Shown here piece after piece: positions 3,591 through 50,809 of a DNA stretch of 64,000 nt. A program made the translations under genes and the position numbers. This DNA is from Patescibacteria group bacterium (GTDB lineage Bacteria; Patescibacteriota; Patescibacteriia; SG8-24), in the NCBI GenBank assembly GCA_041667185.1, contig JBAYFM010000004.1, forward strand, positions 9,097-73,096, given 5' to 3'. Position 1 is the stretch's first letter, and every line of letters begins with the position of its first letter. The notes below the pieces were generated by a model. It had not been told where the DNA came from and did not search any database. It was given only the letters and a program-made list of their open reading frames with translations.

Positions 3591-3643
3591 ACCTTAATTT
3601 TACACGAAAAACCCGGCCAGCGCCACTCCAGGCACCGCTGGTC

Positions 3644-28277: not shown

Positions 28278-29453
28278 CTACTCAGCGACTTTCAGGCTAT
28301 TCACCACCATCTTGAAAGTGACCGCGTAATCAAGTTTATTCTGGCCTCCCAGATTATAACTCACGATGAATATGCGCTTGCCCGCAGCCACGAAGGCCGT
28401 CATCTTGTCCGGGCTCAGGATCTCCTCGTGACCGCCGAGAGTCTTAAGCAATTGAACCTCGGAACCCACGACGCCTGGCGATTGTTCCAGATACCAATCC
28501 AAGAGCGTCTTGTCCGTATCATTGGTTTCGACCAACACCTGGATGAACTCACCCTTGGGCGACGTGAAGTAGGTTTCCTTGCCATCTTCGCCTTTCTCGC
28601 TCACGACCCAGGAGGCCGGACGGAAGATCTCGTAACCCTGGACCGCGCTCTTGTAGACAGCGATCCCCGGATTATTCACGAGCAGGGCCGGGCGCGGCCG
28701 GGCCGGATCGAAAAGGTTGAGTACCTCGTTCAGATCAACGAAACTGTCGCCGTCGGAATCAGGATTGCTCATATCCGAGCCGTAGATGCCGGTCTCTTCC
28801 GCGTCGGTCACGCCGTCAAAATCAGAATCCGCTCCCGGAGTCGGTTCGGGAGGTTCGCAATCAGCGGCGCAGGTCTCGAGAGTCTCAGGTTCCTCGCATT
28901 TGTTGTCACCGCAGACCGGACCGGGCGGCACGCAATCAGCAGAACATGTTTCCACGGTCTCCGGCGCCTCGCATTTGTTGTCACCGCAGACCGGACCCGG
29001 GGACGGGCAGTCGGCCGGACAAACGGCGAAATTCTCGCCGCTTTCGCATCGGTTGTCGCCGCAGACCGGACCGGCCGGAATATTGGCGTTGGTATTGATC
29101 GCGGGCTGGACCGGACCCTTGGCCTTCTGTCCGGGCTGGTAGACCAGGAAATAATACGCAGCGCTGCCGCCGAGAGCTAGCAACAGGAAAATGACGATCA
29201 GGATGATCGGCAACGCGCTGCGTTTCTTGGGCTGCGGCGGTTTGGACGCTGGAGGATTAGCCGCTGCTGCCGGAGCCGGCACTGCCGGTTTCTTCGGCGG
29301 CTCGACCACTTTCTTCTTCAGAGCCGCGCCATAAAACTCATCCGGAATGACGTGGATGACGGTCTCGGAAGAGTTGGCGCCAGGCAAAGCCGCGGTGGGC
29401 GTGCCTGGCGGTTTCTCAAAACCCGGATTCGGAGCGATGTTCGGGGTGTCCAT
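28278..29453 (-). CDS. Membrane-anchored surface protein with three PVCGDNxCE...C.ADC repeats, TSP3 Ca-binding repeats and a C-terminal beta domain
   Basis: TM IILIVIFLLLALGG. Threefold PGPVCGDNKCE(x)PET(x)ETC(x)ADC repeat. DSDFDGVTDAEE and DSDGDSFVDLNE motifs. Confidence 0.6.
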   Translation of the reverse strand: MDTPNIAPNPGFEKPPGTPTAALPGANSSETVIHVIPDEFYGAALKKKVVEPPKKPAVPAPAAAANPPASKPPQPKKRSALPIILIVIFLLLALGGSAAYYFLVYQPGQKAKGPVQPAINTNANIPAGPVCGDNRCESGENFAVCPADCPSPGPVCGDNKCEAPETVETCSADCVPPGPVCGDNKCEEPETLETCAADCEPPEPTPGADSDFDGVTDAEETGIYGSDMSNPDSDGDSFVDLNEVLNLFDPARPRPALLVNNPGIAVYKSAVQGYEIFRPASWVVSEKGEDGKETYFTSPKGEFIQVLVETNDTDKTLLDWYLEQSPGVVGSEVQLLKTLGGHEEILSPDKMTAFVAAGKRIFIVSYNLGGQNKLDYAVTFKMVVNSLKVAE

Positions 29454-29465
29454 GGGAATAGCGGC

Positions 29466-30068
29466 TTAGGGCGTCGGCGGCAGACCGGGCAATTTTCCCG
29501 GCCCCAGCGGATTATAGCCAGCCTTGACCTCGGCGCCATCAAGATAACCGTCACCGTCGGTATCCGGCTTCTTCGGGTCGGTCTTGTATTGGCGCACTTC
29601 TTCAAAGTCGGTCAATCCGTCGTTGTCGGTGTCAACGGCCTGCGGGTCGGTCCCGAGCTGCGCCTCCTCCATATCGGACAACCCATCGCCGTCGGAGTCG
29701 ATCGGAGCGGTCTCTACGGCTGGCGGGACGATCGGCTCCTGCGGCTGCGGTTCGGGTGCTTGCGGCGCGGCCGGTTCGGGCTGGGGCTCTTGGGCCTCCG
29801 GTTGGGTCGGCTGGGCTTCCACATCGGTCGCCGCGGCCTGATCCGTTGGCGCCGCCGGAGCGGGCGCCTGGCTGCGATTCAAAAAGAAATACGCGCCGCC
29901 GCCGATCGCGGCCAGAACGATGACGCCGACAAGACCAAGCAGAAGCTTATTGGGTCCGGCCGAATACGCAGCCTGGGGCGCGGGAACGCCAGAACCAGCC
30001 GGCTGGACCGGCCTGGGCTTGTCCACTTCCGCGAAAATATCTACCGGTTCTTTGGCGTCGTCGAACAT
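29466..30068 (-). CDS. Membrane-anchored protein with TSP3 Ca-binding repeats
   Basis: TM LLLGLVGVIVLAAIGGGAYFF. Pro/Gln/Glu-rich linker. DSDGDGLSDMEE, DTDNDGLTDFEE, DTDGDGYLDGAE. Confidence 0.6.
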   Translation of the reverse strand: MFDDAKEPVDIFAEVDKPRPVQPAGSGVPAPQAAYSAGPNKLLLGLVGVIVLAAIGGGAYFFLNRSQAPAPAAPTDQAAATDVEAQPTQPEAQEPQPEPAAPQAPEPQPQEPIVPPAVETAPIDSDGDGLSDMEEAQLGTDPQAVDTDNDGLTDFEEVRQYKTDPKKPDTDGDGYLDGAEVKAGYNPLGPGKLPGLPPTP

Positions 30069-30257: not shown

Positions 30258-30671
30258 TTATTTGCCTTTGACCAGCGGATCGCGGCCGGAACGATATTCT
30301 TCGCTGTCCGAAAGGCCGTCGCCGTCAGTATCGCTCTTGAGAGGGTTTGTCTTGAAGTTGTAATACTCGGCTCCGTCTCCAAGAGTGTCGCCGTCCGTGT
30401 CCCAATTATTCGGGTCAGTCCCGAGTTTGGCCTCTTCCGCAACCGTAAGACCGTCGCCGTCATCATCACCTGAAAGCGGCACTGGGACTGAAGGAGTATC
30501 CTGGCGCGGTTGTTGCTCACCCGCCTCAACACCTGATCCCGACTGCCCTACCGGCACTTGTGCCGCATCTTCCAGAACGGATCGAGATCTCAGATAGAAC
30601 GCCAGAGCGCCACCACCCAACAGGACGACCACGAAAACCGACACGATGATAATGATGAGTTTCCGGTTCAT
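30258..30671 (-). CDS. Membrane-anchored protein with TSP3 Ca-binding repeats
   Basis: TM LIIIIVSVFVVVLLGGGALAFYL. DDDGDGLTVAEE, DTDGDTLGDGAE, DTDGDGLSDSEE. Confidence 0.6.
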   Translation of the reverse strand: MNRKLIIIIVSVFVVVLLGGGALAFYLRSRSVLEDAAQVPVGQSGSGVEAGEQQPRQDTPSVPVPLSGDDDGDGLTVAEEAKLGTDPNNWDTDGDTLGDGAEYYNFKTNPLKSDTDGDGLSDSEEYRSGRDPLVKGK

Positions 30672-30683
30672 AAAGAATTGATC

Positions 30684-33600
30684 TTAAGGCGTGCTGGTCT
30701 GATAAACATTCTGCGGGGTCAACGTCGGCACTCCAGAGGTGGGTACGGTCATGTCGAAGATGTACCAGTTTCCCTTGGTATTACTCGTACTCACAGGAGC
30801 CGTGATCGAAGTCAGCTGATACGCGCCGTTGTGCCAGCTGATATACATCCGGGAATTGACTTGGGAGAAATAATCGTAGCCATTACCGCTGTAGTCATTC
30901 ACCCAGAATTTCCAGGTCCGCAGCACCGACCGATCATCATTCCACCGATATAACATTGTCTGCGGTGCGTAATCGAAAGTACCACAGGTGTTCCTGCCAT
31001 CTGGATGGTAGCAGGACAGGAAAGCGTTCGGATTAGTATTAGCCACGTCTTGATTGCCCGGACTGCCGTACGACACTGTCGCGCTGCCTGGATCAGGAAC
31101 CCAAAGATACGAATCAAGGAATCCGTTCAGGTCGCCATCCCAGATATATGCGGCCATGGCGTACCCGTAGGAAACCCGGGGCATCAGATAGAATTGCGGC
31201 GCCGACCAACTGTTCGCCGAACCGCTCGGAACGAACATCGAAGCTGCGTGATAACCGTTGACGTTGCGCTCCACGACCGCTCCAGAAAGGCCGGAAACGA
31301 CCAGATTATTGGCGGGCTTGAACGGCAGCACCTTGAGCCGGACGCGGCAGTGCGCCGGCGTGCCAGTGGTCTTGACCACGTCGGCCAGATTATAATTGCC
31401 GCTGGCATCGGTCTGGATCGCGATATTATTCGGCGAACGATCGACGCCGCAGACGCCGCCGAGTTTCTTGCCGTTGGCCCAGATGAAGATCCCTTCGGTC
31501 ACCTTGTCGTCGAGTCCGATCCAGCAATTGGCGCCGTTGCAGGCCGTCCGGACCTGTTCGTTCTTCGTCAGGTCGGCGATGGACGCGAGTCCGCCGTGAT
31601 TGGAGCAGGCCGACTTGGCGGAATCATAGTTCAAACCAGTGCCCGTGACCGTGAGGTCGTTGCAGACACCGCGGTCGGCCAATTGAGTGGACGAACAAGC
31701 CGCGTCGTTCCACGTGCCGTCAGGGTACATCTGCGCGCAATTCTCATTGCCATCAGGGGAGCCGGTCCAGTTATCCGGCTGCTGCGTCGCCCAGTTATTG
31801 AAGTTCAGGGTCGTATCGGCATTGCAGTCGGTGTCGCTGCCGCAAGTCGTGACGCGATCGTAGTTGCAGACCGCGGCCTGAGCCTCGACAGTCGCGCCGA
31901 CGATCGGAGTATTCACGAACATGGCGTCGCGCAGGTTTCCAGAAACAGCCATGCCTTCGCCAGGCCTGGTCCTGACCGTCCAGTTGTCATCGATCAGACT
32001 GTTGCAGTCATCGTCCTTGCCATTACATAGCTCTTTCGGATAGAAGACCAGGTCCATCGAGTTGGCTGGATTGCAATCGGCGACCTTGGCCAGCGTTGTC
32101 TTGGCGATATCCGGTCCGCCCCAGCAACCGGTGGACGGCGGCCAGGCCTGAATTTCGATCTCGCTGCCGGCGCAGGTCGTGATATTGAAAGAGATGTCGT
32201 AACTGCCATCGGCAGCCGTCATGACCTCCTTCAGATACGTAAGATTGCCGCCGTCCTTGCAATAGAGCTTGATCGGCGCATTGCCGACAACGCCCCTGCC
32301 GCCTTCAACCCTGAACACGCCCCTGATCTTCATCAGATTCTCATCAACCACGCCGTTGCAATTGTTGTCGCGGCCGTCGCAGACATCCTCGACACCCTCG
32401 GTCACCGAGAACGAACCGGTCTCGCCGGTGTCGCCGCTCTTCGTGTAGGTCAGGCTGAAATTCGGCCGCGAATCCCATTGGAGAGGTTCGCAATCCTTGG
32501 AGTTCGGCACGCCGTCGTTGTCGGCATCCGGATCGCAGGAATCCTTCAAGACGATCGGGTAGGACTGCGGCGGAGCGACGGGGTAGGGATTCGGGAACGG
32601 CCAGGAATTCGGCAGCTCCAACAAGTAGGCCTGCGGATTGAACAGGTTCCAGACGCCCTGCGGCGGCCGCACGTCACTATCTGTGTTGACCGTCGAGGAA
32701 TCGTTGCAGGCTTTGGATGACCGGTCGACGCAGGTCCGTTTGCAGGTCTTGGCGTCGCAGCTAGCCTGGCCGGTCTGGCGTCCGAAGACCTGGTCCTGCG
32801 GCCTGGTGCTGACGCAGATCCAGTTATTGATCCCGGTCTCGCCTTCGCACTCTTCCGGTCCGGGCGGATCATGCTCGAAATTCTCCAGGATGTTGTTGCC
32901 GCAGAAGCCGCCGGTGACGGTGCCGAGCTTGCAGGCCGACGTGCAGTAAGTGCAGTCCTGGCCATAGGCCGGACGGCAGCGCTGGCCGTTCAAAGCTCCC
33001 CCGTCGCACTGTTCGCCGCGCGCGGCGCTCACGAAACCGTCGCCGCAGACAGCGTTCTTGCAGTTGACGCAACCGTCGGCGGCATCGCTGTTGCCATCAT
33101 CACATTGTTCGCCGGTGTTCTTCACGCCATCACCGCAGCTGCCGGCTTCGGTGCAGCTCCAGTCGCCCCAGCGGCAGGCCAGCTGATCATCCTCCGTACC
33201 CGGCGCGTTGGCGTAGCAGGTGCGCCGCCAGCGCTTGTCATGATCGTTGGCATCGCAAAACTTGACGCAGGACCAATCCTGCCCGTTCGCGCCGAGGCCG
33301 CGGCAGTCGGCGTTGGTCGAACAGCCGGGCTGCGAAGACAGCTGCGTGCAGGTCGTCTGGTCCGCACCGGGCGGACAGCACAATTGCGGGTAATTCTGGA
33401 CTCCGCCGTCGCAGACCTCGCCAGAACCATTGATCTTGCTGTCGCCGCAGCGCGGACCCAGCTCTTTGCAATCCCAGGAACACGATGGCGCACCATTGAA
33501 ATTATATTGGCCGTTATCAGCGCCCAAATCACAGGCTTCGGAAGCCTGTTTCGCGCCGTCGCCGCAGCGCGGACCCAGACCGTTACAAGTCGAGTTGCAC

Positions 33601-36600
33601 TGGCCGTAAGTCCCGTTGAGCGGACCGTCATCGCAGAACTCGCCGGACTGTTTGATGCCGTCGCCGCAGGAGCCGACCGCGCACGCCCCCGGAGCCTGCC
33701 ATCTGCAATCCAAGCCGCAAGCTTTCCGCTGGACTCCCGGTCGCCCGCCGGATACGCAATCAATGATGGCCGGAGCCTGCCCTGGTTCGCACTCCTCCGG
33801 ATTGGCGCCGCCGATCTGCACCACGCCATCGCCGCAATAGCCCTGGGAGCCGATCTCCGTCATGGCTTGGCAGCGCGGGCCAAGATCGTAGTTCACGCCG
33901 CTCATGAGGAGCGCGCCGCCGCCCTGGGGCTGGCAGCCGGCTTCAGGAGACCAGGCGCACTCCGACTTGGCGACGCATTCGTTCTGCGTGGTGTTGTCGG
34001 GATCGCTGCCGTCGCGCACCTCGAAACAGGTCGAGCCAGCCCAGTACATCTTCGCGTTGGCGGCGCACTTGCCGCCGAACCAATTACAGAAACCGTCCTG
34101 CGCCAGACAGGTGTTCTGTTCGGCATAGGCCGTGCACAGATAATCCTGCCCGGTCTCGAAATCGGCGTAGAGACGGAAATCCTGGCCGCCGACGCTCTGG
34201 AACTCATAGACGTGCGACTCGGCCGGACAGCGATAGACCTTCTCCGCGGCATTCCAGCAAGTGGCGGGATCGAACTTGCGCTTGTCGGCGCAAACGCCGT
34301 TCTCGTAGACGCAGATCTCGGCGTGCTGATCGCAGGCGGCCTTGTTCGGATACTGCGAACAGTAACCGGAACACTGCATGAGCTTGTTGACCGGATCGGC
34401 CACGAGACCGAAACCGAGTTCGCTGGCGAGGACCGACGTCCACGAGCCCCAGCTGCTGATCGTGCGGCCGGGCAGGAAAGTCCCGGACTCGAGCTTGGGA
34501 TAGCCATCGCTCTTTTTGGCGACCAGCGCGTTCCGGAGCTGGACCAGATCGGTCCAGCGCTTCAAGTCGCGGATCAATTTATCCTTGTGAGCGCTGCAAT
34601 AGAGGCCGGCGCGCAGCGGGTCGAAGCCGCCGTTCTTGACGCGGCAATCGACGTCGGCCGAACACGGGATCGGCTTGCCATTGTCGAGCGCCTGCATCCC
34701 CTCCTGGGCGGCATCCACGCAGTAGCCTTTGTTACTGACGTTCAGATTGAAATTTATCTTGTTCAGGATCTGGTCGAAGATGGCCTGAGTCTCCGCCGCC
34801 GCCCCGTCGCTGTAAGACAGGATGTTGACGTTGGTGTACAACCGGCGCTGCTGCTCGGCGGCGATGTCAACCTTGGCCACTGCCAGGCTATAGACCGTCC
34901 GCCCCTCGCGCAAAGCCGGATAGCCATCCACCGTGGTCGCTGTCGGATTGCCGCTGAAGCCCTGTTTCTGGTACCAATCGCTGATGCTCAAATGATCCAG
35001 ATTGGACATGATGCGCAGACCGATGGCGTTCTTTTCCCAGGCTGTGGGCTTATCCGGGAAATTCGGGTCCAGCGGCCCCAAAGCGCGGTCGAACGTGAAC
35101 AGATACTCCCGCTGGATATCGCGGCCAGGCTGCAACGAGGCGTACTTGGACTCGTTCAGGGCCGGTAAGAAACCGACGGCCGGGGTGCGCGGAGCGCTGC
35201 TCGCGGCGCCAGCTTGAGCCAGGCGCCGGCTGGCGCTGCTCAGGGCCGAAGACGTCCGCGAAAGGACTTTAACGCCGCTTTCGTTCAGCGCCGGCAGATC
35301 ATCACCCTCGTCACCGCCCGCGGCGCCATCCCGACAATAATAGAAAGAAAGGTTCGTCGTGGGATCATAGAACGGGAACCACACCTGTTCGTCGCCGAGA
35401 CAGGACAAGCTCGCTCCCCTGGCGGCATCCCAGGGCAAACCATGAGCCTGAACGTCGGTGCATTTCCGCCAGGACGGCCAGGGATTCCGGCACAGCATGA
35501 CCGTGACCCTGGATTCGGCGCTGAGCGTCGAAGGCAGGCCCTGATCCAAGATCTCAGCGGCCACTCGGACCGACTGATCGCCATTGGCCGGGAACTTTTC
35601 GACCGGCGTCTTCCGGACCGAGACCCGGGCGGTTTCGGTTTCCTCCGGACGCGATCTGACGCAATCGGACGCCGCGGCGCAATTCTTGCAATCCGGACTA
35701 TTATCCGCCTCGCCGATCTCGCAGAAACCGTTTCCGACCGCGGGACCGACGACCGTCGGCGCGACCACGATCGGCGAATCGTCAGGCTGAACGTCCCAGA
35801 ACCATTTGAAACGATAATCCGGAGTGCTGTTCAGACTGGCCAGATCACCGCCGCGCGCCGGCTTGGCTTCGGCGACGAAATTCTGGTCGCCATCCAGCGA
35901 ATCCTCAGGATCAGGATATACGGCCGCGTTCGTGTCCTCGGCGGTCGTGAACAGGTGCGAGACCGGAGTCAGTACCACGGAATCGATCTTGCAGACAGCG
36001 CCAGCGGTCTTGAATTCCGACGGGCTCGAATCGTAAAGCGGCACGCCGCCCGCCGTCCGCAGCACCTCGCCGGCCGGACGCAAGCCGTCGGCGCCGCGCA
36101 AAAGTATCGTGTGCGTGACATTGGGCAGATAAGAACCGGCGGACATGAAGGTCACCAGCCGCGGCTTGACGACGAGGTCGCCGGGAACACGGCAATAACC
36201 GGCATCAGCAGCTCGAACCGGCGAGACAGCGCGTTCCAAGAGGTCGAAGAGGAAAGAGATCAACCGCGCCGGAGCCTGCCACCAGGCACTCGACCGGACC
36301 TCCGGCCGGAGAGACGTTTCGCCCCAGGGCCGCAGCTGTCCGTTGACCGGCTGCCGGTCGGCGCAGGTATCGCCTTCGCCGCAATCGGCGTCCGTCGAGC
36401 ACTGCTGGCCGGGTTTCTTGACGCAATATCTGACGGGCCGGCAGGAACCGCCGCAATCAGCGTTGGCGACGCAGGCAAGTCCGTTATTGGAACAGACGCT
36501 GGGCGCCTCCGCGGGCCGCGCAGCGCAAACGACGCCGAAAGAGCAGTCAGAATTGATCTGACAGCGCTCGCCGGTATCGGCGCAATATTTGGCCTGGATA

Positions 36601-39600
36601 CAGGAACCGCCGCAGCCGGCGTCGTTCGTGCAGGTCTTGCCTGGATCATTGCTGCAGACCGAACGGCACGCTCCGTCAACGGCCGGTTCGTAAACTCCCA
36701 CGTTGTCCCGAACGGAATTGATATCGACAGCTTCGCTGAAAGCGACTTTGACGGCCGTGTTGCGGCACACGTCTCCTTGTCCGGATAATGGGTAGACGAA
36801 CTCCGGCACGGGCGCCGGCGCGCAACAGCCGTTCGCGGAGCAGCCCAGCGGCGGCGGAGCCGGATCCTCTGTAGCCATCTCGCCCAGCGACCGGCAATAG
36901 GTCTGAGGCTCGCTCTGTTCCAGACAGGAGCAGGTCAGGCTGACCGTGGCTTTGCCGACGCGCGTCGAATCGGAACCGAATTCGGTCAAGCCGGCCAGGA
37001 CGTCATCCGACGGCCGAGCCACCGGCGGACCGGAGTAGACGCCGGCGCGGATGATCTGGAAAGGATCGATCCTGCCGTCGCCGCCGACCGGACCCGGATC
37101 GCAACCGGCCGCCTCGCCAGCGCCGACCACGCCATCGCGGCAGAACGACATTTCAGAATATTGCGCGGAAGCGCCTTCAAGCAGACAGGCTGCGGAACAG
37201 CCGTCTTGATTGGCCAGATTCCCGTCGTCGCACTGTTCGCCGGCCTCCACGATCCCGTTGCGGCAGCACCCCGTGCCGGTCGCTGCGGCGCAGGCTTTCG
37301 TGCCGGCGCGCAGACAAGTCTTCGGATCGCAACCGGCGGCCAGAATCGCATCGCTGGCGCCGGCCCCGCTGGCCGTATCACAGCCGATATCTTCGCCGGC
37401 TTCGGTCCGACCGTTGCCGCAATAATTGACGCAGGACGGCATGACTCCCTCGCTATCAGGCGCGACATCCAGACAAGATGGCAGGCTGCCCTCGCGCAAA
37501 CAATTATTGCTGCAGCCGTCGCCGTTCGCGCGATTGCCATCGTCGCAAGCCTCGCCGTCGGCCAGCTGACCGTCGCCACAGGACGACTTGCCGGCCGCAG
37601 CGCCGAGCATGACGCAGCCGACGGTCGAGCCGTTGGGTTCCTGGCAGCCGGTATCGAAGACGGCGCGGACGGCGGAACAACCCGCGTCGCCGAGTTTGCA
37701 GCCCGCCGGTTCGGTCTCGATGATCGCCTCGCAATTTTCGCCGTTTTCCAACTGACCGTTGCCGCAGCACTGCGCATCATCAAGCGCCCCGCATTTGAGC
37801 GTGCCCAAAACTACGCACCGGCTGGCGTCGCACCCGCGCGTCGCCGGACTACCGACGGCCGCATCGCAAGCCGGGTCTTCCCAAGGCAGGTCAACCACGC
37901 CGTTGCCGCACTGCGGCATCTTGTTCTGAGACCCCGTATGCCGGCAATCGGAAGTGCAGCCGGCCATCATCTCCATGTTCGTATCGAGACGGACATCAGG
38001 AGCCGCCGGCGGATCAATGGATCCGGAGTTCGTGTAAAAACCATCGATGACGTTCTTGTCAGTCTTAGTCCAAAGCCAACTGTAAGCACTCGCCCGCAGC
38101 TGCTGGCCAAGATCATCGCATTCGTCAGGTTTGGCAAAAGGCACCGCCTCGAAATCGGCGCGCTGGCCGACGTATTGCAGCAGCACCGCGCTCGGCCTGA
38201 CATCGGCATGATGGACGGCGCAAGGAGTGGGGCTGGTATTGGTCTTGAACTGCCAGGTGAAATAATCGCCGTCGTTAAGCTTCGAAAGCGGCACGCCGCT
38301 CCGACTCTTGATGAAACCGCTGCCGGCCGGCCGCTCGTCTTTTTTCGGATCCCAATATTGGCTCCGCAACCGGACGAGATAATTGGTGTTGCTCGCCAGG
38401 CCGGCCGAACCGATAGCGAATTCGAAGCGCCGGCCGCTCAGCTGACCGACCGAATCCACGACCTTGTTCACGGTCACGGTCTCATGGAAATATGGCGGCT
38501 GGCAGCTGATGTTGCGGCATTTGAGGACTTCGACATTGCCCGAAAAACTGGCTTCATCCATCGCGACGTTGAATTGCGCCCAGATCGCGGCGTTGCTGCA
38601 GGCGCTGCCGCAATCGGGAGCGTGAGCCGTCACCTGCGGATCAGCGAATTTGACGCTCACTTCGGCCTGGCCGGAGGTCTGCTGGCCGCCGCCCGGCGGC
38701 GCGAACGCGGCCGCGAGACCGACCGGATCCTCGGTCTCCGCCTTCGCGCGCACGGCCTGATAACACTGATGCTTGTCGGGCTGCAGGGACAGGATGTTCT
38801 CATCGGAGCTCCAGTTGATCTGGTAGATGCCCGGAGCGCACCGGAGGCGATTGCAGCTGATGTCGACCGGGAGGGCGGCGAAGCCGGCCGGATTCGCCGG
38901 CGCCGGAGCCTGGTTCGGAGCCGCCGGCGGCAGCCATTCCGGATTATCGACCTCGTCGCGATCGATCAGATATTTGAAAGGATTGACGATGACCTCGGAA
39001 AGCACGCAAGGAGCATCGGTTGCGGCGGTCTTGAATTCCAGAACGTAGTCGCCGCCCTGGTTGAGATCGTAATCACCGTCGAGATCAACGCCGTAGATAT
39101 CCTTGATGCCGTTCTCGGAATCGCCGGACAAAGTGACCCGGTACCAGGTCTTCTTGGCCAGCAAAGCCCCGGCACCCTTGGGCGCGGCGACCAGGGACCT
39201 CGACCCCGGCGGCTGGGGCGGCAGGTTGGAATTCTCAAAGGTCACGTCGAACTGGCTGGTCACGTTGACCGCGGCAGCGCAGGCCGGAGCGATGCCATCG
39301 CCGCAGGTCTCGATCCGGTATTTCCCGGCGAAGGAATCGACCCGCATGAAATTATTGAAAGCCAGCTGGATGACCGTGCCAGTGCAGATATCCTGGGAGC
39401 CGGCGGACGGCGCCGGACTCTTGAAATCAACGGCGTATTTGGCCTGGCAGGTCTGTTCATGGCAAGCGCAGCGCAGGACCTGCGGCATCTCCGGCAGCAC
39501 TTCGGTGCTGAACCGCCAACCGTAGGCACTGGTCGGCTTGGGAGCTTCGCAGGCAGCCTTGGTCGCCCGGCAGGAACCGTTGGGGCAGCAGACCGGCTTA

Positions 39601-42323
39601 TCCGGCTGGTCCTTTTGGCACAGATTGTCGCCGCCGATCTTGGTGCAATCCTGGACCTTGAACGGTACGGCGTTCGAACTCCACTGGTTGTTGGCTTCGA
39701 CGTAAACAGGACCAGTCTCCGCCTCCGGGGTCGCGGGATCAGGACGGGCGGCTGGCACGTAAGCCGAGACCTCCCGGTTCGACCAGGAAACGCCGGCATA
39801 AGCCCGGACCGCCGTGTTGGCCAAAAGGTTATTCTTTGAAAAATTGATGGAGTATTCGGTCAGACCGCTCTTGGTGCCGAAACGCTCGCCCAAGATCTTG
39901 ACCTTGGTGGTGCCGGCCGGACCGTTATCCGGCTCGATGCTGCAGATGCCCGGCTTCGACGGATCGGAATTGATGGTGAACAGGATCGCTTTGCTCTCCT
40001 TGCCATCGCCGGAGCGCTGGACCGACAGGTCATACTGCTCCAACCGAACCGGGCAAGTACCCTTGTCCGAGCACTCGAAAGCCGTCGGGACTTTGACCAC
40101 GATGTAGTTGCTGGTCCAGGTCGCTTTGCAGGGCGGAGCGGGCGGAACGCCGATGGCGACATCGCTGGCGTTGGATTTGGATACGAAACGCACCACGCCG
40201 CTCGAACCGAAGCCGCGGCCTACTATAGTAATATAGGCATCAACCGGACCGGCTGGCGGCAACACCTCGGTGATGGCCGGGGCTTCCGCTTTGTCGCCGG
40301 CGGAAACCAGGAAGATCGGATCATTCGTTGTCCACACGCCGGCAGCCTCGTTTCCGATCCTGACTCGGACAGGATACGGCCCGTCCTTGAGGGTCGGCGT
40401 AATGGCGGTGATCTTGTCGCCGGTCGACGCCCAGCCCTGGCTCGCGACGTTGGCCGCGCTGGTGCTGAGGAAAACCTGGCTCTCCCCCATTTCCCCGCCG
40501 AAATTGACGCCGCTGATGTCGAATCGAGTGCCGATCGGGCCGAAATTCGGTTTGACGAAACAAATGCCCGGCTGCGGCGGCAAAGCGGTGTCAACATCGA
40601 AAGTTCCGACCCAGCCGCGATCATTAGCGGTCGTATCCGCGAGTCCGGACAACGTCCTGATCTCGATGGGGCCGTCTTTGGCGTTCGCCGGAACCTTGAC
40701 CGTGGCCTGGTTGGGTTCGACGCCGTTGGTCCACGAATCTTCGGGCGCGGCGCACAGATCGGCGACCGCGTCGTCATTCGGATCATTCACGTCGCCAAGG
40801 AAAATGACGCGTCCGGCCGGCGGTCCGAACATCTTGCCGGAGACCGTCACGAGCGTCCCGGGAGCGCCGGCCGCCGGAGAGACCGACTCGATCATGGGCA
40901 GATCGACGCATTTGCCGGCGACACAGGCGCCGGAAGCGCAATCAGCATCGCCGGTGCAAACCGCACCGCTGCAACGGCCGCAAGCCGAGGCTGCGCCGCA
41001 ATCCACCCCATCCTCATCCGCGTCCTTGGCGCCATTGCAGCAATGCGTCGGCAGGACCTTGAAATTAGAAACGACCGGGGCGCTGGCGTTGCCGACGACG
41101 TCCTCGGCGGACGCGGCTGCGCCGTAAAGTGATCCGGCCGCCAACTTGGCCAGGTCAATCTGCACGGTGTCGATTGAAAAAGGATTCGCGAGCGCGGCGT
41201 TCATCTTCACGGTCTCGCCGATGATGGCGTCCGCCACCGGAGCGCCGGGAGCGCCGTCCTCGCCGACGGCCACGATCCCGAAAGTCAGGCTGACGGCAAG
41301 CTGGTTATCCTGGGCGATAGCCTGAATGTTCAGGGGCGCACTGCAGATTCCTGGCGGCGACTTCGGCATCGTCACGCGGACGTTCGGCGGCTCGAAATCA
41401 ACCCAATCGCCGATCGCGACGGCGCGGCGGCAAAGCGTCCGGGCTTGCGCGGTCGTATCCTCCGGCTTGGCTCCGGGCGCCGCGCGGCAATCGAGCGGCT
41501 TGGCGTCCGGCGTTTTCAGGACATTGGTCTCAAAACCGGTCGCGCCGCCGTCAGCTTCGATGAGATACCAGACATCGCCCTTGAAACATGGCTGCCCGTT
41601 ATCGCACTTCGAGTCCGGAACGAACTCGATGGTCTTGCCGACCACGGTCGAGGTCCCGGCATAAGCTTCGGTCTTGGGCTTGCAAGCGGCGATATCGAAC
41701 GGAAGACTCTCGGCGCCGTCGCCCGCGCCCTGGATCCGCGGATTGCACTCCAAGACGCGGAAATGGCCGGTGACGCTCGCTGCGTCAATGCCATCATTGA
41801 AAGACATTTTGAGTTTGGAATTCTTGGACCAGCCGCGCTGATCATTCGGACCAGCCGGGGCCACGCCCTGAACCCTAAAAGTGGCGCCGCCGCCGAAGCC
41901 GTTGCCGCCGCCAGCGCCGCCCCCGCCGCCATCTCCCCCGCCGCCGACCTCGCCGCCCGCGGCGCCGATGATGAAACGCGCGATGGCGAAAGCCGACATG
42001 ATGATCACGAGGCCGATGGCCGCGCTGACCATGGTCTTCTTCGCTTTGGAGATCTGTTCCTCATTGCCCTGGGAGGTCATCCAAAGGAAGCCGGCGTAGA
42101 GGATCAGGCCGACGGCGATGATCCCGAGAAAACCCAGGAAGTAGCTGATGATGCGGGCAACGGTCGTGCGGACATCGGTCGTCGTGAGACCGATCGCGGT
42201 CGCGTAATCCAACCCCAGATCAACCTGGGCGGAGACGGCGCGCGCCGACAACAAAACGGCGAAACCGGCGATGGCGGCCAATCCGGACCTGAAGATGTTG
42301 TTTTTAGCGGTGCGCATAACCAT
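30684..42323 (-). CDS. Giant (3879 aa) secreted cell-surface protein. N-terminal module is signal peptide plus two TM helices (TrbC/VirB2-pilin-like topology). Passenger is adhesin-like: Gly-rich linker, Myxococcus-type Cys-rich repeats, MopE-like CxxDNNCNG motifs, a TSP3 motif, a C-type-lectin-like WND motif and an aromatic-rich C-terminus.
   Basis: Single uninterrupted ORF. N-terminus ...AVSAQVDLGLDYATAIGLTTTDVRTT...LILYAGFLWMTSQGNEEQISKAKK...IGLVIIMSAFAI. Repeats such as CGDGQLADGEACDDGNRANGDGCSNNC, CRNGIVEAGEQCDDGNLANQDGCSAAC and CGDGVKNTGEQCDDGNSDAADGC. CDGRDNNCNGVVDE and CNGKDDDCNSLIDD. DPDADNDGVPNSKDCEP. QPDNW...NENCAQMYPDGTWNDAAC...GVCN. Confidence 0.8.
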   Translation of the reverse strand: MVMRTAKNNIFRSGLAAIAGFAVLLSARAVSAQVDLGLDYATAIGLTTTDVRTTVARIISYFLGFLGIIAVGLILYAGFLWMTSQGNEEQISKAKKTMVSAAIGLVIIMSAFAIARFIIGAAGGEVGGGGDGGGGGAGGGNGFGGGATFRVQGVAPAGPNDQRGWSKNSKLKMSFNDGIDAASVTGHFRVLECNPRIQGAGDGAESLPFDIAACKPKTEAYAGTSTVVGKTIEFVPDSKCDNGQPCFKGDVWYLIEADGGATGFETNVLKTPDAKPLDCRAAPGAKPEDTTAQARTLCRRAVAIGDWVDFEPPNVRVTMPKSPPGICSAPLNIQAIAQDNQLAVSLTFGIVAVGEDGAPGAPVADAIIGETVKMNAALANPFSIDTVQIDLAKLAAGSLYGAAASAEDVVGNASAPVVSNFKVLPTHCCNGAKDADEDGVDCGAASACGRCSGAVCTGDADCASGACVAGKCVDLPMIESVSPAAGAPGTLVTVSGKMFGPPAGRVIFLGDVNDPNDDAVADLCAAPEDSWTNGVEPNQATVKVPANAKDGPIEIRTLSGLADTTANDRGWVGTFDVDTALPPQPGICFVKPNFGPIGTRFDISGVNFGGEMGESQVFLSTSAANVASQGWASTGDKITAITPTLKDGPYPVRVRIGNEAAGVWTTNDPIFLVSAGDKAEAPAITEVLPPAGPVDAYITIVGRGFGSSGVVRFVSKSNASDVAIGVPPAPPCKATWTSNYIVVKVPTAFECSDKGTCPVRLEQYDLSVQRSGDGKESKAILFTINSDPSKPGICSIEPDNGPAGTTKVKILGERFGTKSGLTEYSINFSKNNLLANTAVRAYAGVSWSNREVSAYVPAARPDPATPEAETGPVYVEANNQWSSNAVPFKVQDCTKIGGDNLCQKDQPDKPVCCPNGSCRATKAACEAPKPTSAYGWRFSTEVLPEMPQVLRCACHEQTCQAKYAVDFKSPAPSAGSQDICTGTVIQLAFNNFMRVDSFAGKYRIETCGDGIAPACAAAVNVTSQFDVTFENSNLPPQPPGSRSLVAAPKGAGALLAKKTWYRVTLSGDSENGIKDIYGVDLDGDYDLNQGGDYVLEFKTAATDAPCVLSEVIVNPFKYLIDRDEVDNPEWLPPAAPNQAPAPANPAGFAALPVDISCNRLRCAPGIYQINWSSDENILSLQPDKHQCYQAVRAKAETEDPVGLAAAFAPPGGGQQTSGQAEVSVKFADPQVTAHAPDCGSACSNAAIWAQFNVAMDEASFSGNVEVLKCRNISCQPPYFHETVTVNKVVDSVGQLSGRRFEFAIGSAGLASNTNYLVRLRSQYWDPKKDERPAGSGFIKSRSGVPLSKLNDGDYFTWQFKTNTSPTPCAVHHADVRPSAVLLQYVGQRADFEAVPFAKPDECDDLGQQLRASAYSWLWTKTDKNVIDGFYTNSGSIDPPAAPDVRLDTNMEMMAGCTSDCRHTGSQNKMPQCGNGVVDLPWEDPACDAAVGSPATRGCDASRCVVLGTLKCGALDDAQCCGNGQLENGENCEAIIETEPAGCKLGDAGCSAVRAVFDTGCQEPNGSTVGCVMLGAAAGKSSCGDGQLADGEACDDGNRANGDGCSNNCLREGSLPSCLDVAPDSEGVMPSCVNYCGNGRTEAGEDIGCDTASGAGASDAILAAGCDPKTCLRAGTKACAAATGTGCCRNGIVEAGEQCDDGNLANQDGCSAACLLEGASAQYSEMSFCRDGVVGAGEAAGCDPGPVGGDGRIDPFQIIRAGVYSGPPVARPSDDVLAGLTEFGSDSTRVGKATVSLTCSCLEQSEPQTYCRSLGEMATEDPAPPPLGCSANGCCAPAPVPEFVYPLSGQGDVCRNTAVKVAFSEAVDINSVRDNVGVYEPAVDGACRSVCSNDPGKTCTNDAGCGGSCIQAKYCADTGERCQINSDCSFGVVCAARPAEAPSVCSNNGLACVANADCGGSCRPVRYCVKKPGQQCSTDADCGEGDTCADRQPVNGQLRPWGETSLRPEVRSSAWWQAPARLISFLFDLLERAVSPVRAADAGYCRVPGDLVVKPRLVTFMSAGSYLPNVTHTILLRGADGLRPAGEVLRTAGGVPLYDSSPSEFKTAGAVCKIDSVVLTPVSHLFTTAEDTNAAVYPDPEDSLDGDQNFVAEAKPARGGDLASLNSTPDYRFKWFWDVQPDDSPIVVAPTVVGPAVGNGFCEIGEADNSPDCKNCAAASDCVRSRPEETETARVSVRKTPVEKFPANGDQSVRVAAEILDQGLPSTLSAESRVTVMLCRNPWPSWRKCTDVQAHGLPWDAARGASLSCLGDEQVWFPFYDPTTNLSFYYCRDGAAGGDEGDDLPALNESGVKVLSRTSSALSSASRRLAQAGAASSAPRTPAVGFLPALNESKYASLQPGRDIQREYLFTFDRALGPLDPNFPDKPTAWEKNAIGLRIMSNLDHLSISDWYQKQGFSGNPTATTVDGYPALREGRTVYSLAVAKVDIAAEQQRRLYTNVNILSYSDGAAAETQAIFDQILNKINFNLNVSNKGYCVDAAQEGMQALDNGKPIPCSADVDCRVKNGGFDPLRAGLYCSAHKDKLIRDLKRWTDLVQLRNALVAKKSDGYPKLESGTFLPGRTISSWGSWTSVLASELGFGLVADPVNKLMQCSGYCSQYPNKAACDQHAEICVYENGVCADKRKFDPATCWNAAEKVYRCPAESHVYEFQSVGGQDFRLYADFETGQDYLCTAYAEQNTCLAQDGFCNWFGGKCAANAKMYWAGSTCFEVRDGSDPDNTTQNECVAKSECAWSPEAGCQPQGGGALLMSGVNYDLGPRCQAMTEIGSQGYCGDGVVQIGGANPEECEPGQAPAIIDCVSGGRPGVQRKACGLDCRWQAPGACAVGSCGDGIKQSGEFCDDGPLNGTYGQCNSTCNGLGPRCGDGAKQASEACDLGADNGQYNFNGAPSCSWDCKELGPRCGDSKINGSGEVCDGGVQNYPQLCCPPGADQTTCTQLSSQPGCSTNADCRGLGANGQDWSCVKFCDANDHDKRWRRTCYANAPGTEDDQLACRWGDWSCTEAGSCGDGVKNTGEQCDDGNSDAADGCVNCKNAVCGDGFVSAARGEQCDGGALNGQRCRPAYGQDCTYCTSACKLGTVTGGFCGNNILENFEHDPPGPEECEGETGINNWICVSTRPQDQVFGRQTGQASCDAKTCKRTCVDRSSKACNDSSTVNTDSDVRPPQGVWNLFNPQAYLLELPNSWPFPNPYPVAPPQSYPIVLKDSCDPDADNDGVPNSKDCEPLQWDSRPNFSLTYTKSGDTGETGSFSVTEGVEDVCDGRDNNCNGVVDENLMKIRGVFRVEGGRGVVGNAPIKLYCKDGGNLTYLKEVMTAADGSYDISFNITTCAGSEIEIQAWPPSTGCWGGPDIAKTTLAKVADCNPANSMDLVFYPKELCNGKDDDCNSLIDDNWTVRTRPGEGMAVSGNLRDAMFVNTPIVGATVEAQAAVCNYDRVTTCGSDTDCNADTTLNFNNWATQQPDNWTGSPDGNENCAQMYPDGTWNDAACSSTQLADRGVCNDLTVTGTGLNYDSAKSACSNHGGLASIADLTKNEQVRTACNGANCWIGLDDKVTEGIFIWANGKKLGGVCGVDRSPNNIAIQTDASGNYNLADVVKTTGTPAHCRVRLKVLPFKPANNLVVSGLSGAVVERNVNGYHAASMFVPSGSANSWSAPQFYLMPRVSYGYAMAAYIWDGDLNGFLDSYLWVPDPGSATVSYGSPGNQDVANTNPNAFLSCYHPDGRNTCGTFDYAPQTMLYRWNDDRSVLRTWKFWVNDYSGNGYDYFSQVNSRMYISWHNGAYQLTSITAPVSTSNTKGNWYIFDMTVPTSGVPTLTPQNVYQTSTP

Positions 42324-42338
42324 CTCGTTGGAACTTCT

Positions 42339-44522
42339 TTAAGGAGTGCGGGTCGGTCCCAGCTGGCAGTCGAACACTTCCTGGGGATTGCCGTCGCAGC
42401 ACGAAGTGGCGCCAGCCGTGAGCTCGCAAGCGAAGCCCTGGCTCGGAAAGAAACAGTTCTGGAACGCGTCCTTGACCTGCGCTTTGACGACCGGCTGGTA
42501 GAGCGGCAGTTTCTCGGTGACAGTGTCCGTTTCCTCGTTCCAGTTCAGATCATTCAGACGGAAGAACCGCTCGTGTCCCAGATCAGTGACGGTGTGCTCC
42601 GTCGGACCCGCGCCCTGGATCGCGTTGCCGATGATGACGGCTGGCGGATCGATCGGCCTGGCGCAGGTCGAGATGTCCATCTCGCTCGTGCAGTCGGCGG
42701 TGCCGGTCTTCAGCCAGAGTCGGGCGTCATAGAACATCGTCGTGCCGCCGCGCATGGAAGCCGACATCATCGGTTTATTCCAGGCCAGCGTGACCGGAGC
42801 ATCAACAGGCACTGACGACGGATCAGCCGGAGTGATGCCGGCGATCCGCGGCGGATCGAGATCGACCGCGCCGCCGATGCGATAATTGGCGACGGCCGTG
42901 TCGCTGTAAGCTCCGTAGTTCGACGGATCATTGCCCGGCGGAAAGACGTTCCAATTGAAAGCCTCGCGGCTGCCGGAGACTGGGCCCTCGGCCTTGCCGC
43001 TGCGATTGCCGTCGAGGGAATTACCGCTCATATCAGTGACACCATCGGTCGGATCAGCGGCTCCGGGCGGCACCGAACCGACCGTGGCCGCGCGGACCTG
43101 GAACGTGACGTTGGCGTTGGCCGGCAGGCAGAAAACGGACTCGCCGCAGGAATTCGTCACCTTGCCGCCGTCGCAGGGAGCGCTCGGAATGAACTCGACC
43201 GTGCGGTAGCGGTTGCTGATGTCCATCAAACCCTCAATCGAGGTGCAGGTGCCGCCGGTGCAGTCCTTGAGATCGATGAAATTGAAACCTCCGGATCCGG
43301 TCTTGCCGCGCGCGGTCGTCGGATCGAGCGGCTCGTTGAAATACGCGGCCACGACGCGATTCCGGGCCAGAGGATAGATGTTGAACGGACTGGTCGGTCC
43401 CGGCGAAAAATATTCGAGCTTGGGCGGCTCCAGGTCGAAGGTCGTGCTCGTCGTGAAGACCCAGAAATATCCGCCGTCGTTGCCCATGGTGTTGAAGGCC
43501 GGCTTCTGGATCGGAGCGGTTCCCGTCGGTGGCGGCACCCAAGCCTTGATCCCGGCGTCGCCGCCGCGGAGCGCCACGCGATAATCGACCGGTTCGTCAT
43601 TGCTGCCGATGCCGGCCGGCCCGAACCTGAGGACGATGGTCTGGTTATTATCGGCGTTATAAGGCTCATCGACCGCCGTGCGCGTCACGGTCGGCGCGGG
43701 GCTGACGAGCTTGGCGGCCGGATACCGCTGCTCGAAACGATCGGCGACCGAGGCCGCTGTCGGCTCGCCCAGGTCACCCACCTCGATGATCTTGATATTA
43801 TCGGTATTGAGCGTGAGGATGGTCTGCGGCGTGACAGGCGTCTCGATATGGCCTTCGCTAGCGCAGTCCGGCGCACAGACGACGTCATCAGCGACGGCAA
43901 AAGTATTGTTGTCCTTGTAATTCTTGAAAATGGTCGAAAGCACGACCGGCTTCTTGAAAGTGATCGCCACCTTGGTGTTCCGCGGCACGTTGGTCTGGCC
44001 CGCTTCCGGATAGTGGTATTCGATGCCGTAGCCGCGCTGGTTGGGGCCGCAATTGACGCGGCAGCCGCGCGAGAAAAAACTGCCGTCGCCGGAATCGCCG
44101 AGCGGACCAGTGAGCGTGTTGCCGGTCACGGCCCGGAAAATGAACGCCGTGATGGCGTAGGCCGACATGATGATCGCGAGACCGATGGTAGCGTTGATCA
44201 GGATCTTCTTGGCCTGCGTGATCTTCTCCTCGCTCCCCTGCGAGGTCATCCACAAAACGCCGGCGTACAGGATGATGAGCACCGCGGCCACGCCGAGAAA
44301 TGCGAAAAACGCTTTGATGATGTTGCCGATGGTCGTCCGGATATCGGTCGTGCCGAGGCCGATGGCGGTGGCATAATTCAAACCGAGATCGACGCCGCTC
44401 TGAGCGAACGCGACAAGCGGCAAACCGATGGCGGCCAAGATAACGCCAATGACCGCGACGGTGATCGCGGTCTTAGCTGGCGCCGCACTGGCGCCGTTCC
44501 GACGATTTATCCTTCCAAGCAT
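42339..44522 (-). CDS. 727-aa secreted protein sharing the N-terminal pilin-like module of the giant protein; beta-rich passenger
   Basis: ...AFAQSGVDLGLNYATAIGLGTTDIRTT...LIILYAGVLWMTSQGSEEKITQAKK...IGLAIIMSAYAI aligns position-by-position with the N-terminus of the 3879-aa protein. Stop is 15 nt from the giant gene's start. Confidence 0.7.
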   Translation of the reverse strand: MLGRINRRNGASAAPAKTAITVAVIGVILAAIGLPLVAFAQSGVDLGLNYATAIGLGTTDIRTTIGNIIKAFFAFLGVAAVLIILYAGVLWMTSQGSEEKITQAKKILINATIGLAIIMSAYAITAFIFRAVTGNTLTGPLGDSGDGSFFSRGCRVNCGPNQRGYGIEYHYPEAGQTNVPRNTKVAITFKKPVVLSTIFKNYKDNNTFAVADDVVCAPDCASEGHIETPVTPQTILTLNTDNIKIIEVGDLGEPTAASVADRFEQRYPAAKLVSPAPTVTRTAVDEPYNADNNQTIVLRFGPAGIGSNDEPVDYRVALRGGDAGIKAWVPPPTGTAPIQKPAFNTMGNDGGYFWVFTTSTTFDLEPPKLEYFSPGPTSPFNIYPLARNRVVAAYFNEPLDPTTARGKTGSGGFNFIDLKDCTGGTCTSIEGLMDISNRYRTVEFIPSAPCDGGKVTNSCGESVFCLPANANVTFQVRAATVGSVPPGAADPTDGVTDMSGNSLDGNRSGKAEGPVSGSREAFNWNVFPPGNDPSNYGAYSDTAVANYRIGGAVDLDPPRIAGITPADPSSVPVDAPVTLAWNKPMMSASMRGGTTMFYDARLWLKTGTADCTSEMDISTCARPIDPPAVIIGNAIQGAGPTEHTVTDLGHERFFRLNDLNWNEETDTVTEKLPLYQPVVKAQVKDAFQNCFFPSQGFACELTAGATSCCDGNPQEVFDCQLGPTRTP

Positions 44523-46834: not shown

Positions 46835-47512
46835 TCAGGGCTGCCGGACCAGCGGCTCGCTTTCGAAAAGCCGCATCTTTTCCGGCGGCCAGCCGCGGAA
46901 CCAGACGCGGCCGACGACGAACGGTCGCGACACCGGTCCGAACACGCGAGAATCCAGGCTAGCGGAACGATTATCGCCCATCAGGAAAAATTCGCCGGCT
47001 CCAAGCGTGACATCCTTCTCCCCCGGCGTGCGCAGCGCGCCGAGGTAGGCGCTTTCATCAAGCAGCCAACCGTCAGGATGCGCGGCGTCGTAAATGGTCA
47101 CCTGACCGCCCGAGACTACGACCCGGTCGCCCGGCAGTCCGATGACGCGTTTGATGAAGAATTGCCGCGGATCATTGGGATAACGGAACACCACGATGTC
47201 GCCGCGCACCGGTTCATGAAGCCGATAACTCAGCTCGTCGATGATCAGATATTCATGATCGTAGAAATTCGGTTCCATCGACGCGCCCTTCACGTAGAAC
47301 GGCTGGATCAGGAAATAGCGGACCGGAACGATGATGGCCAGCGAGATGATGACCACATGCAGAAGTTCGCCGAAAAATTCCAGGGTCCGCGACACCAGGC
47401 TTTTGACGATCGGCGCCGACTGATCGGCCGGAGTCGGCCCGGACGGCAGCTGCTCCTTGGCAGTCTGATTTTCCTTGTTGATCTCGTCCATAGTCGTATT
47501 GCGAACGCGCAC
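46835..47512 (-). CDS. lepB: Signal peptidase I
   Basis: GASMEPNF (catalytic Ser box) and KRVIGLPGDRV (Lys box). Confidence 0.85.
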   Translation of the reverse strand: MRVRNTTMDEINKENQTAKEQLPSGPTPADQSAPIVKSLVSRTLEFFGELLHVVIISLAIIVPVRYFLIQPFYVKGASMEPNFYDHEYLIIDELSYRLHEPVRGDIVVFRYPNDPRQFFIKRVIGLPGDRVVVSGGQVTIYDAAHPDGWLLDESAYLGALRTPGEKDVTLGAGEFFLMGDNRSASLDSRVFGPVSRPFVVGRVWFRGWPPEKMRLFESEPLVRQP

Positions 47513-49399: not shown

Positions 49400-49447
49400 T
49401 ACGAGGCGTTGCGCCTTAACCCCAAGCTTATGGACACCAGACTGAAG

Positions 49448-50794: not shown

Positions 50795-50809
50795 GATCCG
50801 CATCCGACT

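Follow-up and report, generated by a model that had tools for sequence, protein, structure and literature searches.

What is a pilin-like module doing at the head of a protein of several thousand residues? The question is raised by two adjacent genes in a 64-kb stretch of DNA from an ultra-small, uncultured Patescibacteria group bacterium (the window, by which we mean that whole stretch): gene A, which encodes a "medium" protein of 727 aa, and gene B, which encodes a giant of 3879 aa. The original prediction, made from the sequence alone, held that both proteins begin with the same conjugative-pilin-like module fused to adhesin-like passengers. Both open reading frames (ORFs) are present exactly as it gave them, side by side on the minus strand with a gap of 15 nt. 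The product of gene A is identical to a public protein, P0032, recorded as "MAG: pilin [Patescibacteria group bacterium]," and gene B has been called at full size on an ENA contig. The two genes and their N-terminal parts are listed here, with the basis of each assignment in parentheses.

42339..44522, minus strand: gene A, the "medium" putative modular pilin, 727 aa (ORF; PF18895 match of 40.2 bits plus Big_5; AlphaFold2 model).
44403..44522, minus strand: predicted signal peptide of gene A, residues 1-40, long and Sec-type, ending AFA↓Q (hydrophobic stretch at 11-46; conservation of A40/Q41, from which cleavage is deduced).
44124..44402, minus strand: mature pilin module of gene A, residues 41-133 (PF18895 match at 58-127; alignment with stand-alone pilins; helices 61-93 and 98-134).
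44043..44123, minus strand: linker of gene A, residues 134-160, non-conserved and disordered (predicted local distance difference test [pLDDT] <50 at 135-155; no consensus columns).
30684..42323, minus strand: gene B, the giant putative modular pilin, 3879 aa (ORF; PF18895, TrbC, and NF045849 scores; ENA gene call).
41958..42227, minus strand: mature pilin module of gene B, residues 33-122, after a 32-aa signal peptide ending VSA↓Q (Pfam, BLASTP, hydropathy, alignment).
41883..41957, minus strand: Gly-rich linker of gene B (GGEVGGGGDGGGGGAGGGNGFGGG), residues ∼123-147 (taken directly from the translation).

The likeness between the two N termini was borne out by BLASTP, in which residues 29-129 of gene A and 18-119 of gene B share 62/102 identities (61%; E = 9e-32), and a tblastn search of the whole window found two copies of the module, those of genes A and B alone. 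Each protein has three hydrophobic stretches at its N terminus, one signal-peptide-like and two transmembrane (TM)-like, and no others along the chain. AlphaFold2, applied to the module with an alignment of 31 homologues, predicted a signal helix followed by a hairpin of two helices (H61-93 and H98-134), with hairpin pLDDT >90. The mature module of gene A consists of a conserved N-segment (VDLGLNYATAIGLGTTD), helix 1, a W-M-T-x-x-G loop, and helix 2. The A-x-A↓Q motif is kept across 62 fused homologues, of which 98% have A40 and 80% have Q41. At the end of helix 1, W91 shows 87-97% conservation. Hydropathy, the predicted structure, and conservation thus agree on the topology that had been claimed: an AxA signal peptide and two hydrophobic helices with a conserved Trp. 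A sequence-profile search of the PDB with the module returned spurious repeat-protein matches and nothing else.

To which kind of pilin does this hairpin belong? Our comparisons support the prediction that the N-terminal modules are of the VirB2/TrbC kind and not type IV (PilA) pilins, even though neither reaches the cut-off of the strict TrbC/VirB2 family, PF04956. Both genes pass the gathering cut-off (26.6 bits) of PF18895, T4SS_pilin, gene A with 40.2 bits (44.6 for the N terminus alone) and gene B with 34.7 (40.5), and both have the layout of that family, a signal peptide plus a two-helix hydrophobic hairpin collinear with its members. Against PF04956, the N terminus of gene B scored 23.2 bits (E = 8.4e-5; profile positions 10-98 of 98), below the cut-off of 27.9, and gene A gave no match in the Pfam scan; several homologues carry a precomputed PF04956 match. 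We also compared the module profile with eight authentic VirB2/TrbC genes taken from MPF_T plasmids, where virB1 and virB3 flank each of them. The hhalign alignment spans 59 collinear columns, from the mature N-segment through helix 1 and the W-M turn to helix 2, with a score of 29.1 (E = 3.6e-4; probability, 37%); the reversed profile scored 14.7 and 30 column shuffles scored ≤21.1. Neither protein has the type IV prepilin motif (G↓F(T/S)LxE) in its first 80 residues or any N_methyl or type IV pilin Pfam match.

The likeness to Agrobacterium VirB2, RP4 TrbC, and the F-pilin TraA lies in the long signal peptide with an Ala-rich site, the short mature N-segment, and two helices joined by a short polar loop; the profile similarity is weak but collinear. 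These are pilins of diderms, whereas the A/B module comes from a monoderm host, falls below the PF04956 cut-off, has a loop ∼7 aa longer, and lacks virB1/virB3 flanks; furthermore, the head-to-tail cyclization of the full-length chain that occurs in VirB2/TrbC is impossible in A and B while the C-terminal passenger is attached. A nearer counterpart is found among monoderms. NF045849, the NCBIfam model of the Mbov_0395 family pilin-like conjugal transfer protein, was built on a conjugation protein of a Mycoplasma integrative and conjugative element (ICE); the gene B module passes it with 47.1 bits (cut-off, 40), whereas gene A fails with 21.4. The small proteins of this family (Mbov_0395/MMCAP2_0565; Bacillota) differ from gene B in sitting inside conjugation clusters. 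A tblastn search of plasmids with the gene B module gave a single match, a 151-aa Pontibacillus (Bacillota) protein of the NF045849 family. Since its gene lies 4 kb upstream of those for a VirB4 ATPase of the CD1110 type and for a peptidoglycan hydrolase, the module appears to be a genuine member of monoderm conjugation clusters; the NF045849 match and the Pontibacillus locus place it in monoderm MPF_FATA-like systems.

Beyond the linkers, the two proteins consist of passengers whose sole resemblance to each other in BLASTP is weak and of the Big_5 type. In gene A, the passenger is Big_5/immunoglobulin (Ig)-like with a Cys-rich C terminus; the AlphaFold2 model of the full protein (pLDDT, 84; predicted template modeling score, 0.77) has the hairpin, a disordered stretch at 135-155, and then beta-rich Ig-like domains to ∼690, and a Foldseek search of this model against the PDB gave generic tandem Ig-like matches alone. 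The gene B passenger (∼3730 aa; Cys content of the protein, 5.1%) has Pfam matches to four TIG domains, several Big_5 domains, DUF4215 Cys-rich repeats, MopE-like motifs, and Lectin_C. Two of these regions were delimited.

39624..40898, minus strand: four IPT/TIG domains of gene B, residues ∼476-900, bounds approximate (PF01833, 67.5 bits, four stretches, best at 590-661).
31461..31634, minus strand: C-type lectin-like domain of gene B, residues ∼3564-3621, near the distal end (PF00059, 30.0 bits versus a cut-off of 22.6 in a segment scan).

Pfam thus bears out the adhesin-like content foreseen for the passengers, and from these domains we take it that the passengers of A and B are extracellular adhesin-type domains. 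We found no LPXTG motif, C-terminal TM segment, or C-terminal hydrophobic stretch in either protein, so that the pilin module is the sole anchor. Whether the passenger stays attached to it is a separate matter. VirB2/TrbC-type pilins are trimmed at the C terminus (RP4 TrbC/TraF), and the linker of A and B is exposed and disordered; the fusions could accordingly be pro-proteins, whose passenger is cleaved after export and then released or laid down as a surface layer, leaving an ordinary short pilin. However, in an alignment of 63 homologues, the linker columns have neither a consensus nor a conserved cleavage motif, and the gene cassette described below has no protease gene. We consider such processing very unlikely.

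The module can be compared closely with pilins that carry no passenger. A database search with the 141-aa N terminus matched exclusively short stand-alone PF18895 proteins of 109-183 aa, with a best identity of 58-65%. These pilins, known from an array of "Candidatus Southlakia epibionticum" and from the arrays surveyed in PMC12102498, belong to the same hidden Markov model family, are collinear with the module, and have the same conserved residues. When 31 of them were aligned with A and B, the correspondence ran from the A-x-A↓Q site to ∼10 aa past helix 2, where the free pilins end and A and B continue. The per-site entropies of the 31 stand-alone and 62 fused sequences are correlated over 96 positions (Spearman, 0.82). 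Sites conserved in both sets are G55, I69, L76, G77, G88, W91, M92, T93, G96, A104, A111, I113-L115, I117, A121, I124, and F127, and the shared conservation reaches into the extracellular N-segment (G55-L56). Pairwise identities among the fused proteins average 49% for the module and 37% for the passenger. Because the module is under the same site-wise constraint as the free pilins and is better conserved than the passenger, we conclude that, judged by its sequence, it is no decayed anchor and retains whatever function the free pilins have.

In a neighbor-joining tree of the modules, based on a short alignment (∼89 aa), the medium and giant modules of one genome (L004, L009) are sisters and do not group with their orthologues; the clades of the window's A and B are adjacent. 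This within-genome pairing suggests gene conversion or coevolution.

The hairpin also occurs in "poly-pilins," single chains with 2-17 tandem PF18895 hairpins, which make up most of the best 150 matches; examples are P0131 (552 aa) and P0142 (1775 aa). P0131 has one N-terminal signal peptide and six hairpins separated by 15-25-aa linkers, with no internal signal peptides. Such chains imply that their hairpins pack side by side inside one polypeptide.

Is the pair peculiar to this genome? A scan with protein A, covering one genome per GTDB species, yielded 16 Patescibacteria loci. In 5 of the 16 (L002, L003, L004, L008, and L009), a fused pilin of 897-1083 aa is directly followed by a second of 2144 to >3456 aa; the remaining loci contain either one fused gene by itself or short pilin genes in arrays of 6-12. 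Altogether, the cassette was seen in at least eight other Patescibacteria genomes (these five plus L031, L032, and L033). A full-length search with A returned the identical P0032 as well as at least 80 more clusters (534-992 aa), almost all of which combine PF18895 with Big_5 and a few of which have additional beta-propeller or PASTA domains; giant homologues of 3481 and 3586 aa were also found. In databases, these fused proteins are automatically named "pilin" or "Ig-like domain-containing protein." Thus, in related genomes, other large proteins also begin with this module; a search for such cases had been proposed together with the prediction.

Two observations concern the loci themselves. 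In L032 (12706-22685), the giant is apparently split into consecutive genes of 1805, 1118, and ≥1052 aa, of which the first alone has the pilin module; this could be either a real fission or the result of assembly or frameshift errors. Loci L001, L003, L004, L005, and L010 are labeled as uncultured Gammaproteobacteria, yet they have Patescibacteria-type synteny and pilin genes, and the labels look wrong.

The genes around the pair recur with it. Those of interest in the window are as follows.

30258..30671, minus strand: 137-aa protein with an N-terminal TM anchor (residues 1-29) and bacterial TSP3 (Ca-binding) repeats (PF18884, 52.6 bits).
29466..30068, minus strand: 200-aa membrane-anchored protein with three TSP3 repeats and a TM segment at 36-64 (PF18884, 82.7 bits).
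28278..29453, minus strand: 391-aa membrane-anchored protein with a TM segment at 75-105 and three Cys-rich repeats (hydropathy; repeats read from the sequence).
46835..47512, minus strand: signal peptidase I (LepB), a context gene (PF10502, 142 bits).

The order LytR, LepB, HisRS, YqeY, medium pilin, giant pilin, TSP3 protein(s), 391-aa protein, YbeY, DAGK, FtsA, and FtsZ is kept in segments across the loci. This synteny holds where the HisRS proteins share just 41-60% identity and also around family members only ∼30% identical to A (L031, L032, and L033), which argues that the cassette is chromosomal, old, and vertically inherited. LepB, HisRS, and YqeY lie upstream of the pair in L001-L003, L006, L008, L009, L011, L031, and L032, with LepB two to three genes upstream of the pilins in the loci examined. 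Signal peptidase I is the class of enzyme that cleaves VirB2/TraA-type propilins; its proximity could reflect a link to propilin processing or coincidental housekeeping synteny. Downstream, the gene for the 137-aa TSP3 protein starts 12 nt from gene B and is syntenic in L004, L006, L011, L031, and L033, and the 391-aa protein, which is always located downstream of the pilin pair, has 31%-identical syntenic homologues in L006 and L011. A scan for promoters and terminators gave counts equal to the shuffled expectation and is uninformative on operon structure. The block that had looked like an operon nonetheless behaves, by its synteny across related loci, as a conserved cassette. Of the three TSP3-repeat membrane proteins that had been described in it, two pass PF18884 (30258-30671 and 29466-30068), whereas the third (28278-29453) has no Pfam TSP3 match.

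That third, 391-aa protein combines a Cys-rich repeat (GPVCGDN[KR]CE..E....C.ADC) with TSP3-like DSDxDG motifs and a conserved C-terminal domain and lacks a Pfam family. A CD1107-like match on it was sub-threshold and limited to the TM/Pro-rich stretch and was discarded as evidence. Elsewhere in the window, a 913-aa ORF (48437-51178, minus strand) was rejected as spurious: it has no family match and overlaps genes on the opposite strand for LytR (47963-49399, plus), EngA/Der (49409-50794, plus), and Pth (50810-51382, plus), and it fits the long antisense ORFs typical of ∼60% GC DNA. Another large putative surface protein of 1148 aa is encoded at 60533-63979 (minus strand), with 11 DUF5122 beta-propeller repeats and a Big_13-like region.

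What, then, might the pair do? We propose that A and B are modular VirB2-like pilins of an ABY1-like Patescibacteria bacterium, with modules that pack with other pilin modules and adhesins that are rare or tip components, and we see this proposal as standing at about even chances. By analogy with the biogenesis of TraA and VirB2, Sec would export the precursors, signal peptidase I would cleave them behind the A-x-A motif, and the hairpin would lie in the cytoplasmic membrane as in F-pilin and VirB2, its two ends facing outward and its Lys-rich loop facing the cytoplasm; in this orientation, the second helix would drive export of the passenger. P0131, with its single signal peptide and six tandem hairpins, fits this N-out, C-out topology. 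The passenger would project from the cell on its linker, and that of the giant may be long enough to form a fiber by itself. Because the module has stayed pilin-like and is better conserved than the passenger, it probably packs against other pilin modules; candidates are that of the partner protein and the free-standing pilins whose genes lie at other sites in genomes of this kind. In that case, whatever structure these pilins form, be it a pilus dependent on a type IV secretion system (T4SS) or a stalk embedded in the membrane, would include the adhesins as rare or tip subunits; at a minimum, the module would hold them beside that structure. The function that we envisage is Ca-dependent attachment to a host cell or surface.

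Several observations weigh against this proposal. Given the packing of F- and T-pili, a passenger of 590-3750 aa could not fit on every subunit; a homopolymer is sterically implausible, and therefore sparse or tip incorporation alone is conceivable. Fold searches with the module were uninformative, as the hairpin is inseparable from any other helical hairpin. The 64-kb window, otherwise occupied by housekeeping genes, has no genes for VirB4, VirD4, or VirB6, and no T4SS genes were found within 10 kb of the related loci (∼12 loci). The closest stand-alone arrays are not beside VirB4 either; they are flanked by solute-binding-protein genes and a DUF2079 gene. In the literature consulted, a pilus made of PF18895 proteins has not yet been seen in any of the Patescibacteria (PMC10633639, PMC12857230).

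These observations lend themselves to the main rival explanation, in which the hairpin was co-opted purely to hold two fiber-like adhesins on the cytoplasmic membrane of a monoderm and is a static anchor, never extracted or polymerized and unconnected with any T4SS. Neither protein has a membrane element apart from the module, the cassette is free of T4SS neighbors in every one of the ∼12 loci, the bulk of the passengers is hard to accommodate in a filament, and the giant passenger could reach beyond the envelope without a pilus. Yet a signal peptide and one TM helix would suffice for such an anchor, whereas A and B retain the whole pilin unit, extracellular N-segment included; the conserved sites are those of the stand-alone pilins, conservation of the module exceeds that of the passenger, and the modules of partner genes covary within a genome. 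It is because partner modules of one genome cluster in the tree that we favor rare or tip components over proteins merely sitting in the membrane. We regard a static anchor as quite possible but short of probable.

How much the missing T4SS neighbors tell depends on the stand-alone pilins of the same class. ABY1-type arrays of 6-12 pilin genes are found at L017 (8359-11375) and L019 (7510-11129) and also in L007, L012, L013, and L015. On their upstream side are one or two SBP_bac_1 genes and an NTP_transferase gene, and on their downstream side are four small unknown genes, a DUF2079 gene, and GT2 glycosyltransferase genes. No T4SS genes were found among 28 large ORFs flanking short-pilin arrays. 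Since the closest stand-alone arrays likewise lack T4SS neighbors, the absence of such genes from the cassette is weak evidence against a T4SS link in this class.

A survey of 3,035 Patescibacteria genomes detected VirB4 in most classes and VirB2-like pilins in 1,948 assemblies, near virB4 in 1,135/1,948, with pilin arrays of 2-11 genes and no PrgB-like adhesin (PMC12102498). Among the rows covered here of Tables S1 and S3 of that survey, 4/6 for Buchananbacteria, to which the named relatives of L002 and L008 belong, are VirB4-positive, and the VirB2 hits listed in Table S3 for two ABY1 (Magasanikbacteria) genomes are flagged as not near virB4. In "Ca. Southlakia epibionticum" ML1, a six-gene pilin array is essential (PMC10633639).

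The same evidence bears on another possibility, that the PF18895 hairpin is not a T4SS component in this lineage at all and that its stand-alone, tandem, and fused forms build a T4SS-independent membrane oligomer or envelope structure, so that the name "T4SS pilin" misleads. This would account for the non-T4SS neighborhood kept by ABY1-type arrays (SBP_bac_1, NTP_transferase, DUF2079, GT2), for the flagged hits of the two ABY1 genomes, for single chains with 6-17 tandem hairpins, and for the weak tie to authentic VirB2 seen in the hhalign probability and the sub-cut-off PF04956 score. However, members of the family lie in T4SS clusters of other Patescibacteria classes, as the 1135/1948 assemblies and the essential array of S. 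epibionticum attest (PMC12102498, PMC10633639), one member lies within a Bacillota conjugation cluster, and NF045849, which the giant's module passes, was built on the Mycoplasma ICE conjugation protein. We judge a T4SS-independent structure to be improbable.

The proposal of modular pilins can be carried a step further: both proteins might be genuine subunits, at the tip or sparsely placed, of a filament of the VirB2 type that the Patescibacteria T4SS would assemble in a monoderm envelope, and might stand in for the VirB5/PrgB adhesins, which are missing. In this strict form, we think it rather unlikely. If it were true, the cassette would encode the organelle by which a large branch of the Candidate Phyla Radiation attaches to its hosts, and no "modular" pilin of the conjugative type would have been known before it.

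How does the pair compare with systems already described? The stand-alone PF18895 pilins, 110-180 aa long, end ∼10 aa past helix 2 and lie in an array or T4SS cluster, whereas A and B continue for 590 and 3750 aa of adhesin-type domains and their genes occupy a fixed housekeeping neighborhood. Modular type IV pilins, such as PilB and PilC of Streptococcus sanguinis, consist of a pilin module fused to an adhesin or lectin module and serve as minor or tip subunits only. They share the design logic of A and B, in which an N-terminal filament module carries a bulky binding module, but differ in their unrelated fold and machinery, having one N-terminal helix and a signal peptide of class III, which PilD cleaves; A and B have no such motif. 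PrgB-type adhesins, SiiE, LapA, and RTX adhesins are like gene B in their long chains of Ig-like and Ca-binding domains with a lectin-like end and in a presumed role in cell-cell attachment, but they are anchored by LPXTG and sortase or retained through type I secretion, whereas A and B lack LPXTG and are anchored by the pilin module.

The view that this is an undescribed system was overstated in part. VirB2-like pilins of Patescibacteria have been published (PMC12102498, PMC10633639), and the fused proteins are present in databases; what we did not find is a discussion of the fusion or the cassette. Searched by keyword, the Patescibacteria survey (PMC12102498), a T4SS review (PMC12857230), the Cell paper (PMC10633639), a perspective in PNAS (PMC11665869), and a preprint on giant genes (10.1101/2023.11.21.568195) gave no mention of a pilin-adhesin fusion or of the cassette, and literature searches for the fusion returned papers on short pilins or on giant genes of Omnitrophota alone. 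Thus, the pilin family and its arrays are known; what appears to be new is a modular conjugative-type pilin, with a design analogous to that of modular type IV pilins.

A large part of bacterial diversity belongs to the Patescibacteria, which live attached to other cells. In the only species for which this has been tested, the T4SS and its VirB2-like pilin array proved essential (PMC10633639), and the main survey found no T4SS adhesin (PMC12102498). For annotation, the finding carries a warning, as the label "pilin" on a protein of 700-3900 aa masks an adhesin. The "modular pilin" principle would be extended from type IV pili to conjugative-type pilins. A conserved, widespread, adhesin-like pair built on a pilin module connects the pilin family with attachment in a concrete way that can be tested and might shed light on the means by which these bacteria adhere to their hosts.

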